Positions 4,923-56,493 of a stretch of DNA of 64,000 nucleotides are shown here, one piece after another. Numbering within the stretch: the first letter of the stretch is position 1; each line of letters begins with the position of its first letter. The position numbers and the translations under genes are program-made. Source of the DNA: Sumerlaeia bacterium (GTDB taxonomy: Bacteria > Sumerlaeota > Sumerlaeia > SLMS01 > JAHLLQ01); assembly GCA_040219255.1 (NCBI GenBank), contig JAVJSW010000060.1, positions 128,001 to 192,000 on the forward strand, given 5' to 3'. The notes below the pieces were generated by a model that was given only the letters and a program-made list of their open reading frames with translations, did no database searches and was not told the origin of the DNA.

Positions 4923-5657
4923 CTACCCCCGGATGACCATGGTGTTGGCGAACACGTCGCCCATGCGCTGGGGTTGCTGCATTTGAAAGGCCAATATCAA
5001 GGGCATGAAGGGGATCAGCAGCACCAGGTTTCGCTTGATGGATTGCTGAAATCCGATCGGCTGCCAGGACGTCGCATCCACCGTTTGCAGACTCATCATC
5101 GCTTTGCCGGGGCTGCGGCCGCTGAACAATCCGTCCTTGCCGAGAAAGACGAGCGTCCCCACGAGGCTGATCAGTCCGGCCAGCAGGAGGATGAGCGACC
5201 CGCCGAGAGTCTCCGCCGCCCCCTGCTCCATCCCCGCCTCGATCATCACGTTGATGAGGAGGCCGAGGGTGCAGAAAACGGCGACGAACAGGATCGCGAG
5301 GGCGATCTGGAGAAGGAACTGATCGACGATGTAGGCCACCGCGCGGGGCACGAGCAGATCGGTGTTGTCGGGCCGGATCCAGCCCTGCGGCTGGGTCGCC
5401 TGGGGCGCCGCGCCATAGCCGCCGAAACCCGCCGCGACAGGCGCAGCCGCCGGGGGAGTGGGGGAGCCGTGAATGGCGGACACTTCGGGGAAATGCACCC
5501 CGAGCAGGTCCCACTGGGGCTGGCCCTCGCGCCAGACGAGCATGTCGCTCGTGGCCTGGCGCGCCGCGATCATCTCGCGCACACGCGCCGAATCATAGGG
5601 GCCATACTTGTCCTGGGACCCGGGACGGGCAAGAAACCAACCGGATTCGGAAGTCAT
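4923..5657 (-). CDS. GYF_2 (DUF4339) + RDD family membrane protein
   Basis: N-terminal W.....KYGPY...MLVWREGQPQW; C-terminal RAVAYIVD, two TM helices, GRSPGK, QRMGDVFANT. Confidence 0.85.
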   Translation of the reverse strand: MTSESGWFLARPGSQDKYGPYDSARVREMIAARQATSDMLVWREGQPQWDLLGVHFPEVSAIHGSPTPPAAAPVAAGFGGYGAAPQATQPQGWIRPDNTDLLVPRAVAYIVDQFLLQIALAILFVAVFCTLGLLINVMIEAGMEQGAAETLGGSLILLLAGLISLVGTLVFLGKDGLFSGRSPGKAMMSLQTVDATSWQPIGFQQSIKRNLVLLIPFMPLILAFQMQQPQRMGDVFANTMVIRG

Positions 5658-5687: not shown

Positions 5688-5715
5688 TCACCACAGAGTC
5701 ACAGAGGACACCGAG
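5688..5715 (+). repeat. ~9-nt-period intergenic repeat (CACAGAG type), left arm next to the nuclease gene
   Basis: TCACCACAGAGTCACAGAGGACACCGAG; degenerate inverted partner at 7119-7150. Confidence 0.55.
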
Positions 5716-7093
5716 ATGTATTCTCAAGAACTATAGCTGCTCTGATGGCGTCAAAGTCTTTCGGTGAGAGGGTGCGCCTGTCCCATACAGGGTGCGCTTG
5801 ACCCGCTCCTACAATCCCTTCGCTGTCGAAAATCGAAATGCCGTTTCGATCCACAACCAGACAAATACACGCATCTTTCAATGAAAACTTGTTTCTGTCC
5901 GTCTGCGTTTCGTTGTAGGTGAAGGCGTCCGAAAGAGTATACTTAGCCACTTGGCCGGGGAGGTCGCCTTCGAGAGCCACATCCAGCTTGGCCTCGACGG
6001 GAAACCACGTCCCACCGATCATGACAGCATAATCCGATCGACCCTGCGATATGTCATCTTTCCAACAGGTAACCTCCCGATAGGTTTTGCTTCCTGGATC
6101 TTTGATTTCGTTGAGAAGATGGTCAATAAAAATGTCCCGGACCTGGCTTTCGAAGAGGCAACGGCGCGTGACGTTGCGGCCTTTATCGAGCCAGTTTTCC
6201 ACAGTGATGTCGCGAATCCCTTCTGTGTGCCCCACCGCGTTGGCCAAGTAATCTGGAGCTTCCGGGTTATGCAGTAGGATCAAATCGCGGAGGGTATTGA
6301 AGGTTGGACCGTCAACTAATTCGGGCTGACGCGCATCCGTTCGAAGGCGATGTTTGATGGCGTCGTGGGGTATTGGCTTCTCGAAAAGATAAAAATCCGT
6401 GAATTCGGAGTAGTATGGGCTATGCCAATGGTTCTCGGAGCCTTCCCTGGAAATGTACTCAATGCTTCCCTCAAGACGCGCACAGGCAAAAATGCAACCA
6501 CCGACTTGTTCAAGGCAATGAAGCTCGTTGTCGATGACAATAGCGAAATCGGTAGCGAAACACCCGTAGTCTTCACCCACTGATTTGACGAGCCGCTTTG
6601 CCTTCTGCTTGTTCTTCATGGCGAGCCGAAAAAAGAATATGTCTCCTGCCAAGGCCCAACGTGGTGCTGTCCAGTTCCCCGTCTTGGAACCCTGAAGCTG
6701 GCGCCGCACGGTGGTTCCATCGTCTTCCAATTCAACCATCGCCCCACGAAGCAACCATTGCGTGTTTGTTTCCCAGTATCCGTCTTCCCGCACCTTTGAT
6801 TCAACCATCTCATAAAACGTATCGGCGGTTGATGGAAAACCGGATTGGACCATGATTCCCCGCGTGGGGATGGGGGTCTTGGTCCATGCTTCAGGAATCT
6901 CCCCACTGCCCATGGGAGGATGGGAGGGCGCTGGCCCCAAACTCAGACTTCGATATTCCGCTCTCGATTCATAAAGGACGCGGAAATCCTCGAGGACTTG
7001 TCTCTTTGCTTCCGGACTCAAATCATCCGGCAAACTCGCCAAAAAGGCATCCGCCTCCTCAGTGGGAAGCTTGGGAATTTCCTGCTTGTCCAT
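5699..7093 (-). CDS. Putative restriction-type nuclease: possible EVE/PUA-like domain plus C-terminal PD-(D/E)XK domain
   Basis: FESQVR...IDHLL...EV...GRSDY...PVEAK...GQVAKY fits E..D..ExK..QxxxY; NWTAPRWALAGDIFFF resembles PUA-superfamily readers; visibly AT-richer than neighbours. Confidence 0.6.
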   Translation of the reverse strand: MDKQEIPKLPTEEADAFLASLPDDLSPEAKRQVLEDFRVLYESRAEYRSLSLGPAPSHPPMGSGEIPEAWTKTPIPTRGIMVQSGFPSTADTFYEMVESKVREDGYWETNTQWLLRGAMVELEDDGTTVRRQLQGSKTGNWTAPRWALAGDIFFFRLAMKNKQKAKRLVKSVGEDYGCFATDFAIVIDNELHCLEQVGGCIFACARLEGSIEYISREGSENHWHSPYYSEFTDFYLFEKPIPHDAIKHRLRTDARQPELVDGPTFNTLRDLILLHNPEAPDYLANAVGHTEGIRDITVENWLDKGRNVTRRCLFESQVRDIFIDHLLNEIKDPGSKTYREVTCWKDDISQGRSDYAVMIGGTWFPVEAKLDVALEGDLPGQVAKYTLSDAFTYNETQTDRNKFSLKDACICLVVDRNGISIFDSEGIVGAGQAHPVWDRRTLSPKDFDAIRAAIVLENTSRCPL

Positions 7094-7118
7094 AGTACAA
7101 GCTCATCCGAAATAAATT

Positions 7119-7150
7119 CCTCAGCGCTCTCCGCGCCTCAGCGGTGAATT
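7119..7150 (-). repeat. ~9-nt-period intergenic repeat, right arm
   Basis: Reverse complement AATTCACCGCTGAGGCGCGGAGAGCGCTGAGG is 29/32 identical to 11114-11145. Confidence 0.75.
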
Positions 7151-7154
7151 CCCA

Positions 7155-8453
7155 CTAAACCGTCAGACCGCATCGTGCGAAGATTGCCGGGATTTCTATC
7201 AGGTATTCGTCGATCGTAAACCAATCGGAAAGTTGAGTGCGCGAGAACCGGCCCGACACCGCCTCTTCCTTCAGCAACTCGTCCAGGAACGGGTCGCCGT
7301 CGTGCCAGGTGCGCATGGCGGCGGCTTGCACGGCGGCGTAGGCGTCTTCGCGGGAAACGCCGGATTCGACGAGGCGCAGGAGGACTTTCTGGCTGAAGAT
7401 CAAGCCCCGCGTGACGTTCAGGTTCGCCGCCATGCGGGCCTTGTTGACGAGAAGGCCCTCGAGGACGAAGGACAGCTTGCGCAGCCCGTAGTCCGCCGCG
7501 AGGCAGCTATCGGGCAGGATGACGCGCTCGACGCTGCTGTGGCTGATGTCGCGCTCGCCCCAGAGCGCCACGTTTTCCATGCCCGCCAGCGCGTTCGCCC
7601 GCAGGATGCGCGCGAGGCCGGTGAGGCGCTCGCAGACGATCGGGTTGCGTTTGTGCGGCATGGCGCTGCTGCCCTTCTGGCCTTTGGCAAAGGGCTCTTC
7701 CAGCTCGCGCATTTCCGGCCGTTGCAGGTGGCGGATTTCCGTGGCGATGCGCTCCATGGCGGCGCCCACCAACGCCAGCGCGTTCAGGAACGCGGCGTGG
7801 CGGTCGCGGCCGACGACCTGGGTGGAAGCCTTGTCCACGTTGATGCCGAGGCGTTCGCAGACGGCGCGTTCGTACTCGACGCCATAGTGGGCGCAGGTGC
7901 CCACCGCGCCGCTGATTTTCCCGACGGCCGCTTCGGCGATGGCGCTCTCGACGCGGACGCGGGCCCGCAGCAGCTCCTGATGCCAGGTCAGGGCCTTCAA
8001 CCCAAACGTCGTGGGCTCGGCGTGCATGCCGTGGGTGCGGCCCATCATGGGGGTCATGGCGTGCTCGGTGGCGAGATTCTCCGCCGCCGCGATGGCCCGG
8101 TCCAGATCTTCGAGGATGATCGCCCCGGCGCGCTTGATGCGCAGTCCCTGGGCCGTATCGACGACGTCGCTGCTGGTCAGGCCCATGTGGACGAAGCGGC
8201 TTGCGGGGCCGATCTTCTCGGCGAGCTGCGTGGTGAACGCGATGACGTCGTGGTGGACGGTGGCTTCGATTTCTTCGATGCGGGCCACATCGATCACGGC
8301 GCGTTCGCGGATGGTTTCCACGTCCTCGGCGGGCATGCGTCCGGCGGCGGCGTGGGCTTCGCAGGCGGCGATTTCCACTTCGAGCCAGACCTGGAACTTG
8401 GCCTCTTCGCTCCAAAGGTCGCTCATCGGGGGCACGGAATAACGATCGATCAT
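7155..8453 (-). CDS. purB: Adenylosuccinate lyase
   Basis: MIDRY start, HHDVIAF, HMGLTSSD, GRTHG.HAEPTTFG, GSSAMPHKRNP. Confidence 0.97.
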   Translation of the reverse strand: MIDRYSVPPMSDLWSEEAKFQVWLEVEIAACEAHAAAGRMPAEDVETIRERAVIDVARIEEIEATVHHDVIAFTTQLAEKIGPASRFVHMGLTSSDVVDTAQGLRIKRAGAIILEDLDRAIAAAENLATEHAMTPMMGRTHGMHAEPTTFGLKALTWHQELLRARVRVESAIAEAAVGKISGAVGTCAHYGVEYERAVCERLGINVDKASTQVVGRDRHAAFLNALALVGAAMERIATEIRHLQRPEMRELEEPFAKGQKGSSAMPHKRNPIVCERLTGLARILRANALAGMENVALWGERDISHSSVERVILPDSCLAADYGLRKLSFVLEGLLVNKARMAANLNVTRGLIFSQKVLLRLVESGVSREDAYAAVQAAAMRTWHDGDPFLDELLKEEAVSGRFSRTQLSDWFTIDEYLIEIPAIFARCGLTV

Positions 8454-11113: not shown

Positions 11114-11145
11114 AATTCACCGCAGAGGCGCGGAGGGCGCAGAGG
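11114..11145 (+). repeat. ~9-nt-period intergenic repeat
   Basis: AATTCACCGCAGAGGCGCGGAGGGCGCAGAGG, near-identical to the reverse complement of 7119-7150. Confidence 0.75.
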
Positions 11146-11165
11146 GGGTGGCGCCCCCCCCGCAT

Positions 11166-11286
11166 GTAGTTCCGCCTTCAGGCGGAAAGCCGGCCCGCGC
11201 CGTGGTTGGATTATAGAGAGAAACGCCACGGGGCAAGGACCCCGCGGCGTTTTTCTCGGACCAGTTCCGCCTAAAGGCGGGACTAC
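11166..11286. repeat. GTAG-type REP inverted doublet (REPIN-like)
   Basis: GTAG-TTCCGCC-TTCA-GGCGGAA at 11166-11187; inverted copy at 11265-11286 (rc GTAGTCCCGCCTTTAGGCGGAA); internal hairpin GAGAGAAACGCCACGGGG...CCCCGCGGCGTTTTTCTC. Confidence 0.8.
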
Positions 11287-16905: not shown

Positions 16906-16970
16906 CGCGCCGCTCCCGAGAGTCTTCGATGGACAGCTAAACCAGACAGGAGCAGAGAGGACAGAGGAAT

Positions 16971-17093
16971 TCGCCACGGATGGGCACGGATAGGGGTTGG
17001 ATGTGTTTTTTTGCTTAAGACCTTCTTCGAGCGCCATTTCGTCGCTTGTTCATCGCTGCATCCGACTTCACTATCCGTGCCAATCCGTGGCGA
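16971..17093. repeat. Inverted repeat pair (CACGGAT type) between divergent ydeP-like and fdhD genes
   Basis: TCGCCACGGATGGGCACGGATAG (16971-16993) vs rc of 17071-17093, 22/23 identical; complementarity extends imperfectly on both sides. Confidence 0.8.
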
Positions 17094-17142
17094 TTCTTCC
17101 CTCTGCGCAGCCTCCAACCTCCCTTTTCTCAGTGGTTGACCC

Positions 17143-18341: not shown

Positions 18342-18946
18342 GCTTGGTCTGTGGGATTCTGGCCGGGGGGCAGTCTTCCCGCATGGGCCAGCCGAAAGAG
18401 GGACTGATCCTCCCCGATGGGCGCCCCCTCATGGCGTTCCTCTTCGATTTGCTCAAGCCCATCGTTTCCGAAGTCTACGTCGTCGGGGCCAGCCGAGGCT
18501 TCGAACCCGCCCAAGTCCCCGGCCTGCGCCACCTGCCCGACCGCGAACCGGGGCTCGGACCCATGGGCGGATTGCGGACGCTGCTGGAAAGCGGCACCGC
18601 CACCCGCTATCTGCTCGTCACCTGCGATCAACCGCGCCTGACGCGGGGGCTTCTGGATGTCCTGATCCAGGAAAGCCCGCCGGATCGCCCGGCCTTCCTG
18701 CAAACCCAAAGCGGCCAAAGCCTCGCGCCCTTCCCCTCGCTGTGGCCCGAGGCAACCCTCGCCGCAGTGCGCGACGCCATGGAGCGGGGCGAGCGCTCGC
18801 CGCGGCGGCTGCTGCGGGAGCTCAACGCCGTGGCCTGCGTGGCGCCTGTTGGCGCGGAGTTGCTGGTGCAAAGCGTGAACACGCCGGGGGAATGGGAGGT
18901 GTATTTAACGCAAAGGGGCAAAGAGGCCAAGGCGCAAAGGGTGTGA
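18338..18946 (+). CDS. mobA: Molybdenum cofactor guanylyltransferase
   Basis: GILAGGQSSRMGQPK, GPMGG, CDQP, SVNTP; GTG start overlapping the upstream stop. Confidence 0.88.
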   Translation: MSLVCGILAGGQSSRMGQPKEGLILPDGRPLMAFLFDLLKPIVSEVYVVGASRGFEPAQVPGLRHLPDREPGLGPMGGLRTLLESGTATRYLLVTCDQPRLTRGLLDVLIQESPPDRPAFLQTQSGQSLAPFPSLWPEATLAAVRDAMERGERSPRRLLRELNAVACVAPVGAELLVQSVNTPGEWEVYLTQRGKEAKAQRV

Positions 18947-19085
18947 AATCAGGGATGCAGGTTGGGTTCTGGAGCGATGAGCAACCTGAGGATTTCCAGA
19001 AAAATAAATTACAAAAATCTCTACGAATCCACTCCAATTCCCCGCCAACCACCCCCTTTGCCCCTTATGCACCTTTGCGTTAAAT
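18903..19085. repeat. Inverted repeat pair (CGCAAAG type) overlapping the 3' ends of convergent mobA and mqnC
   Basis: ATTTAACGCAAAGG (18903-18916) perfectly inverted at 19072-19085, followed by degenerate GCAAAG iterations; AT-rich spacer. Confidence 0.75.
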
Positions 19086-56124: not shown

Positions 56125-56493
56125 TTAGCCTTTCGCCTTCTTGGCGGCCTTTTTGGCGGAGGACTTCTTCGCCGCGCCGGCAGGCTTCGCCGCCGCAGCT
56201 TTCTTAGGAGCCGCCGCTTTCGGGGTCGAGGCTTTCTTTGCCGCCGCCGCCTTCTTGGGAGCAGCCGCCTTCTTAGGTGCCGCGGCTTTCTTGGGAGCGA
56301 CCGCCTTCTTGGGAGCAGCCGCTTTCTTCGGGGCGGCGGCCTTCTTGGGCGCAGCCGCCTTCTTGGGAGCGGGCTTCGGCTCGGCGGGGGTTTCCGCCGC
56401 TACGGGCTCTTTGGGAGCGACCGCTTTTTTCGCCGCCTTCTTGGTGGCCGTCTTCTTCGCGGCGGGCTTCGTGGTGGACTTCTTCTTGGCCAT
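56125..56493 (-). CDS. Nested in-frame histone H1-like Lys/Ala/Pro-rich protein (122 aa)
   Basis: GGAGG-8nt-ATG then MAKKKSTTKPAAKK...; shares the stop codon with the rne ORF. Confidence 0.6.
   Translation of the reverse strand: MAKKKSTTKPAAKKTATKKAAKKAVAPKEPVAAETPAEPKPAPKKAAAPKKAAAPKKAAAPKKAVAPKKAAAPKKAAAPKKAAAAKKASTPKAAAPKKAAAAKPAGAAKKSSAKKAAKKAKG

Follow-up and report, generated by a model that had tools for sequence, protein, structure and literature searches.

Inward-facing heptamer repeats frame a nuclease-like gene behind purB in a Sumerlaeia bacterium: a REPIN-like element that is likely served by GxxExxY proteins and may rarely capture single genes

A gene for a predicted nuclease lies directly behind purB in a Sumerlaeia bacterium, between two inward-facing periodic repeats that we call arms. 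We consider it probable, if far from assured, that these arms bound a dispersed inverted-repeat element, that GxxExxY proteins likely cut and spread this element, and that here it likely holds one captured foreign ORF. We observe that arms form doublets, that they pair with GxxExxY genes, that whole units have been copied and that cargo fits tightly to its ORF in three genomes. The best reading of these data is that REPIN-like doublets, likely served by GxxExxY, capture single genes rarely. Capture is a rare outcome of a mostly empty element.

The locus lies in a 64,000-nt stretch of DNA that we refer to as the window (contig JAVJSW010000060.1, positions 128,001 to 192,000; assembly GCA_040219255.1). 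The first-pass annotation of this window had placed inward-facing arms at both ends of the cargo gene, and we find both where it put them (Table 1). The repeat frame that it proposed, with N6 in both gaps and a period of about 9 nt, has 0 matches in the genome. The actual frame is TCACCRCWGAG-N5-GAG-N6-GAG, which steps by 8 and then by 9 nt and has 76 matches in the 5.35-Mb genome. The right arm had been put 4 nt from the purB stop, which holds when the distance is counted to the AATT leader and becomes 7 nt when it is counted to TCACC. An AT-richer tract was said to coincide approximately with the interval between the arms, and it does: GC is 0.49-0.56 in the interval and 0.60-0.72 in most flanking windows (200-nt windows). 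Two other pairs, at 16971-17093 and 18903-19085, had been likened to empty sites with short spacers; they are real short doublets but belong to other arm families, with GAT and AAG tails.

Table 1. Features of the purB locus and other arms in the window (positions in the 64,000-nt window).
Feature	Position	Strand	Description
Left arm	5688..5715	+	Three heptamer units, CACAGAG subtype, 8+9 spacing, A/T-rich leader before them; PWM score 46
Right arm	7120..7147	-	CGC subtype with three heptamer units at 8+9 spacing; 7 nt past purB stop; PWM score 41
Right-arm inner extension	7098..7119	-	22 nt, semi-conserved
Cargo gene	5699..7093	-	464-aa ORF
Downstream flanking host gene (GYF_2 + RDD)	4923..5657	-	Host-like GC3, 0.84
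Upstream flanking host gene purB (adenylosuccinate lyase)	7155..8453	-	Same orientation as cargo
Solo arm, 8+9 family as at cargo locus	11117..11144	+	
Empty doublet, GAT arm family	16971..17093		Long hairpin when folded
Empty doublet, AAG arm family	18903..19085		Left arm overlaps 3' end of upstream host ORF

The fit between the arms and the cargo ORF is close at both ends. As the first reading held, the cargo stop lies inside the left arm (TGA at 5699-5701). On the opposite strand, this arm encodes the last five codons of the cargo and its TGA stop. Among cargo homologs, the C-terminus falls exactly 8 residues past a conserved Arg451 in 12/35 sequences and 7-9 residues past it in 22/35. In the cargo, residue +8 directly abuts the inner edge of the left arm, and the arm adds the five codons and the stop. 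The left arm stands in place of the cargo's own stop codon. At the other end, the right arm belongs to a class in which a further stretch of about 22 nt on the inner side is semi-conserved. This inner extension scores 5.98 at the locus (median of real arms, 4.6), a value attained by 0.3% of coding 24-mers and by 0/88 regions upstream of low-GC3 genes. The cargo ATG starts 4 nt past the extension, which may be the source of the cargo's ribosome-binding site. The left arm shows no inner extension (score -3.3, a level to which 21% of real arms also fall). With the left arm bare and the ATG 4 nt behind the right-arm extension, the foreign DNA is close to a bare ORF. We counted this ORF-precise fit at both arms in favor of capture.

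The two arms themselves are not a matched pair. They differ in subtype (CAC versus CGC) and are identical at 19/28 positions, whereas among the 16 short doublets in which both arms are 8+9, 15 are subtype-matched and all reach 20-28/28. Elsewhere in the genome, the right-arm sequence has one identical copy and four copies with 1 mismatch. The mismatch at the cargo locus counted against capture. It would suit a composite of two older elements, in which the gene came by another route, a doublet settled on each side of it, and deletions from the inner edges took away both inner arms along with the spacers and the native stop codon. The two arms seen today would then never have moved together. Such a history would also be in keeping with the 30 host-like genes of the source genome that have arms on both sides and with a G004 gene that lies between two doublets. 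However, none of the 30 two-sided host-like genes (0/30) ended up between inward arms, and the composite requires two deletions that both end at the edge of the ORF. Mixed-family doublets are common anyway, with same-class arms in only 92/148 short pairs under one classification, and in G031 a unit has been duplicated arm to arm. We regard the composite as unlikely and continue with capture as the preferred reading.

Arms are abundant in the source genome. Using three family matrices, we found 442 arms (270 GAG, 142 GAT and 30 AAG), and shuffled genomes at equal score gave 0-3 arms per family. The repeats are far beyond chance. Each arm is a direct array of heptamers, in which an A/T leader is followed by CAC or CGC heptamers with an 8-9 nt period, and 286/442 arms sit in inward doublets of at most 350 bp. 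When all 154 consecutive inward pairs were considered, 143 spanned at most 350 bp (median 154), four spanned 423-467 bp, one 520 bp, one 1,451 bp and five more than 5 kb. The 1,451-bp pair is the one around the cargo, and it is the sole inward pair between 0.6 and 5 kb in the genome. The discontinuous pair sizes (at most 350, 423-520, 1,451 and more than 5 kb) were counted as evidence for capture.

Most elements have spacers of 40-250 nt. Their mean GC is 48%, and they are mostly unique, with 98 spacers falling into 85 clusters. There are 21 doublets that measure 293-300 bp, and 12 doublets have interiors that are about 70-90% identical. Thus, interiors have been copied together with their arms, which again counted for capture. 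The 293-300-bp doublets (C12:153590-153885 and C14:12584-12879, for example) pair a 3-unit with a 4-unit arm, and their length stays constant within a few bases, although some interiors are 90% identical and others can barely be aligned. This steadiness suggests a length constraint or substitution-heavy decay. Fully open frames occur in 50% of long unique spacers (n = 12) versus 18-20% of local shuffles, a weak hint that spacers are captured gene fragments; the 49 spacer open frames searched gave no convincing Pfam match (best E 0.015). We also considered spacers as decayed GxxExxY genes and rejected this origin, since tblastn matches were weak (best E 7e-4). The 520-bp inward pair (C54:21949-22469) surrounds an orphan 137-aa ORF with GC3 0.66, whose sole homolog is a 99% identical record; it is a possible second cargo or a possible pseudogene.

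Two further repeats in the window stand apart from the arms. At 11145-11285, beside the solo arm at 11117, two short G+C-rich palindromes that bear a GTAG-like tag form a pair unrelated to the arms; they resemble classical REPs. Related words recur by other solo arms in the genome. At 56134-56491, an 18-nt repeat array on the minus strand probably encodes the low-complexity Lys/Ala/Pro-rich tail of a protein.

The first-pass annotation had named GxxExxY/PDDEXK_3 genes as a candidate partner of the repeats, and the genome bears this out. Each of the four inward pairs of 423-467 bp holds a GxxExxY gene (PF13366), and the four pairs are of four different arm types. One of them, at C59:7331-7764, is framed by 8+9 CGC arms. 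In all, 4/5 GxxExxY genes in the genome lie between inward pairs. The fifth GxxExxY-like gene (C49:77714-78049) is host-like in sequence and has neither the ExK motif nor arms; it is possibly a domesticated, inactive copy, and its condition was counted for capture. PF13366 is very common across the phylum, with matches in 62/75 genomes; the strict arm pattern was matched in 34/75, and arms lie on both sides at 15 of the best 30 GxxExxY loci, one of the 30 being in the source genome. At G004:C74:1000-2400 and G016:C1:87955-89361, GxxExxY genes are flanked by whole doublets that are duplicated or tandemly repeated.

The same elements could instead be host regulatory or nucleoid-binding repeats, acting as read-through attenuators or RNA-stabilizing hairpins and spread by gene conversion, with GxxExxY as a passenger or a mere binding protein. 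In line with this, 422/442 arms lie outside gene cores, and the one doublet that we folded as single-strand DNA (16960-17105) forms a stable hairpin (z = -7.75, with 0/200 shuffles as good). For single arms, folding was no stronger than in shuffles (z -0.61 and -0.78). We found no target-site duplication at the cargo locus, where the flanks have in common at most a 4-nt word, away from the ends, and PDDEXK_3 is given as of unknown function in the available portion of PMC3424549. These points would suit regulatory repeats. However, regulatory repeats would not be expected to come in four arm types that each frame their own GxxExxY gene, to flank half of the best 30 such loci across the phylum, or to recur as whole units at unrelated sites. 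We give this explanation very little weight and return to a GxxExxY-served element.

How readily might such an arrangement arise by chance? The cargo has a GC3 of 0.57, compared with a genome median of 0.82. An enrichment of arms near low-GC genes had been proposed and was not found: arms adjoin 11/112 low-GC3 genes versus 390/2730 host-like genes. Among 40 isolated low-GC3 genes, only the cargo gene and one GxxExxY gene are bracketed. We then shuffled the 113 solo arms over 2273 junctions in 20,000 trials. An inward pair fell around a low-GC3 gene in only 2% of trials (expected number 0.02), which counted for capture. An inward pair fell around some gene of any kind with P = 0.63 (expected number 0.97), and this value, together with the missing low-GC3 enrichment, counted against it.

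These numbers bear on coincidence as an explanation: the gene came in by horizontal transfer, and a solo arm settled at each of its A/T-rich ends in two separate events, in the way that arms go in beside stop codons everywhere. An inward pair around some gene is to be expected by chance (expected number 0.97); arms also overlap the ends of host genes (window 18903), and nine gene-sized inward pairs in phage have no cargo features. Independent insertion sits poorly, however, with the expectation of 0.02 for a low-GC3 gene, with both arms abutting the cargo ORF, and with three chromosomal events that all hold a single low-GC gene versus 1/71 controls. It is, in our judgment, quite improbable, and capture remains our preferred reading.

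The chromosomal events come from relatives as well as from the source genome. In relatives, we took a partial sample of the loci that surround strict-pattern arms or GxxExxY genes. It comprised 390 distinct arms, of which 95 were solo and had 1.9 kb or more in view, and it yielded four inward pairs of 0.6-2.7 kb, one of them with GxxExxY. In G016, a 1,312-bp inward pair (G016:C3:194261-195573) lies directly after trpS and is filled by a single gene for a 399-aa SIR2-like protein. The gene matches PADLOC SIR2 with E 1e-11, falls below the Pfam cut-off, has a GC of 0.41 versus 0.49, and has a homolog in one other of the 75 genomes searched; it is a candidate stand-alone defense gene. In G031, there are two arm-gene-arm units of 1,777 and 1,810 bp (C6:25169-26946 and C7:81990-83800), each filled by one low-GC, unannotated gene whose product is hydrophobic at its N-terminus and matches serpins weakly (E 0.04-0.06). 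The two proteins are 53% identical, and the likeness in DNA runs exactly from arm to arm, with unrelated flanks. This duplicate makes the strongest case that an arm pair was copied as a unit with cargo other than GxxExxY. The serpin-like family occurs in 9/75 genomes, and several homologs have arms or doublets adjoining; in the eight other genomes, none lies between an inward pair. A 1,012-bp pair in G004, considered as a further cargo case, turned out to be two doublets around a host gene and was set aside.

All four cargo units (one in the source genome, one in G016 and two in G031) are co-oriented with the upstream host gene. We scored as cargo-like any interval of 0.6-2.7 kb that is low in GC and filled by one ORF, and counted G031 once. 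By this measure, 3/3 independent inward events without GxxExxY were cargo-like, versus 1/71 outward or tandem intervals (28 in relatives and 43 in the source genome; Fisher p 6e-5, a value that overstates the contrast because the measure was chosen after the first cases had been seen). The G016 SIR2-like pair, the arm-to-arm units of G031, the interval contrast and the shared orientation all counted for capture. The post hoc measure and the partial sample counted against it. These data uphold the earlier proposal that arms mark single-gene cargo insofar as a foreign single gene is held and a unit has been copied; they correct it in that the elements are mostly empty and capture is rare.

Comparison of sites gave no empty allele. 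Among 29 relatives' loci (none from the same genus), RDD never lies within 1.5 kb of purB. The G016 site (10 trpS loci) and the G031 sites (11 loci) had no conserved neighbors and no empty allele, and in three low-coverage metagenome contig sets of related strains no listed joint skips the cargo and no contig spans the locus. We scanned phage and metagenome loci after dropping arms that scored under 18. The 191 phage loci, of which some had short flanks, contained nine gene-sized inward pairs, none of them cargo-like, alongside 65 outward or tandem intervals. In 121 metagenome loci, there was no gene-sized inward pair. Phage contigs commonly have these arms, for the most part in short doublets, and none of their inward pairs longer than 350 bp contains a GxxExxY gene. 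An arm pair was likewise found at 0/14 loci of cargo homologs. The missing empty allele, the lack of cargo-like pairs in phage and metagenomes, and the result at homolog loci were counted against capture.

The cargo product had no Pfam, PADLOC or NCBIfam match, and a search of the other 74 genomes of the phylum gave no homolog. Homologs exist elsewhere, 55 of them at 25-35% identity and 595 clusters by profile. A structure model (pLDDT 81.8) predicts a helical extension (residues ~1-70), an EVE/YTH (PUA-like) domain (75-280) and a PD-(D/E)XK domain (297-464). The top Foldseek match of the cargo is VcaM4I (E 0.014). Residues 75-280, which gave no Pfam EVE match, align with 2ar1 (Z 8.8, rmsd 3.2, 126 aligned), THYN1 (Z 8.5, rmsd 3.3, 131 aligned) and VcaM4I (Z 7.7, rmsd 2.8, 115 aligned), and residues 297-464 align with BpuSI (Z 8.9, rmsd 4.0, 139 aligned) and DrdV (Z 8.1, rmsd 3.9, 128 aligned). 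The Z scores are moderate and agree domain by domain, at 10-16% identity to the solved structures. The putative catalytic residues E315, D354, E367 and K369 are invariant in 36/36 aligned sequences. The N-terminal 70 residues gave no usable Atlas match.

Judged by known PUA-nuclease fusions (accessible parts of PMC6765204 and PMC7641849), the cargo, a predicted EVE-like/PD-(D/E)XK fusion, is probably a modification-dependent restriction enzyme. Described PUA-superfamily enzymes of this kind include the EVE-HNH enzymes VcaM4I and TspA15I and the PUA-DUF3427-PD-(D/E)XK enzyme YenY4I (Lutz et al. 2019, PMC6765204, available portion). Like them, the cargo joins a predicted PUA-like sensor to a nuclease and stands alone, without a methyltransferase neighbor. 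Unlike them, it is predicted to fuse the EVE-like domain directly to PD-(D/E)XK, without a middle domain.

The element most resembles REPIN/RAYT systems. In the portion of Bertels and Rainey (2011, PMC3116915) available to us, inverted doublets are the main extragenic unit, form hairpins and leave likely remnants as singlets, and there are several repeat groups that are each tied to their own enzyme gene. Here too, inverted doublets dominate (143/154 inward pairs), the one doublet folded forms a hairpin, and each of four arm types frames its own GxxExxY gene. The arms described here are direct periodic heptamer arrays, whereas REPs are palindromic; the linked gene is of the PD-(D/E)XK family (PF13366), whereas RAYT is a Y1 (HUH) tyrosine transposase; and the spacers are mostly unique and can enclose whole genes, whereas the portion of PMC3116915 available to us gives no gene cargo for REPINs. 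The arm elements work like REPIN/RAYT, but the lack of palindromic REPs and of a linked Y1 transposase sets them outside that group.

A second relative is found in Geobacter bemidjiensis, where 'nonanucleotide' and 'octanucleotide' repeats are catalogued as multicopy sequences in Table S6 of Aklujkar et al. (2010, PMC2996986). Their published consensus is the reverse complement of the GAG and AAG arm families, and they too are intergenic, often with two per junction. In contrast to our proposal, the available text of that paper offers no enzyme, mobility or cargo for them. In the freely readable literature that we consulted, we found no description of the pairing of GxxExxY with arms. As an arm element, the cargo locus itself has the consensus, and arms of the same class frame a GxxExxY gene at C59, but its two arms are not of matching subtype.

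Mobile insertion cassettes (MIC231) and integron gene cassettes carry one passenger gene between short ends and are served by an enzyme in trans. The cargo locus is similar in holding a single gene between short ends, with a proposed trans enzyme. It differs in having no IS-type terminal repeats with target duplication and in a proposed GxxExxY enzyme that belongs with neither the DDE transposases nor the tyrosine recombinases. The system would be a variant of a non-autonomous mobile cassette. What is new is the gene-sized, defense-like cargo, the duplicated unit and a measured background that shows capture to be rare.

How might such capture work? We propose that a GxxExxY protein made elsewhere in the genome would bind the periodic heptamers and cut at the arm edges, and that host repair would then join foreign DNA between two arms. 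A unit placed just past a host stop codon in the orientation of purB would have its cargo read through from purB. Selection would keep useful genes, and this cargo would be kept because of its defense against modified phage DNA. A much bolder version holds that capture without integrase or transposase is widespread, with a GxxExxY nuclease of ~125 aa reading the heptamer arms, swapping the interior and installing ORF-precise genes behind housekeeping stops as read-through cassettes. We hold this version to be possible but doubtful.

Two of the three cargo types that we found look like anti-phage genes. If arm elements capture and move genes, they would be an overlooked route by which single defense genes enter chromosomes outside defense islands. 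If this is true, arm pairs would also serve as a simple flag for new defense genes, such as a cargo with no Pfam or PADLOC match yet 595 homolog clusters. The cargo locus would offer a ready test substrate, in which both enzyme and arms are defined and empty as well as filled forms occur in nature.
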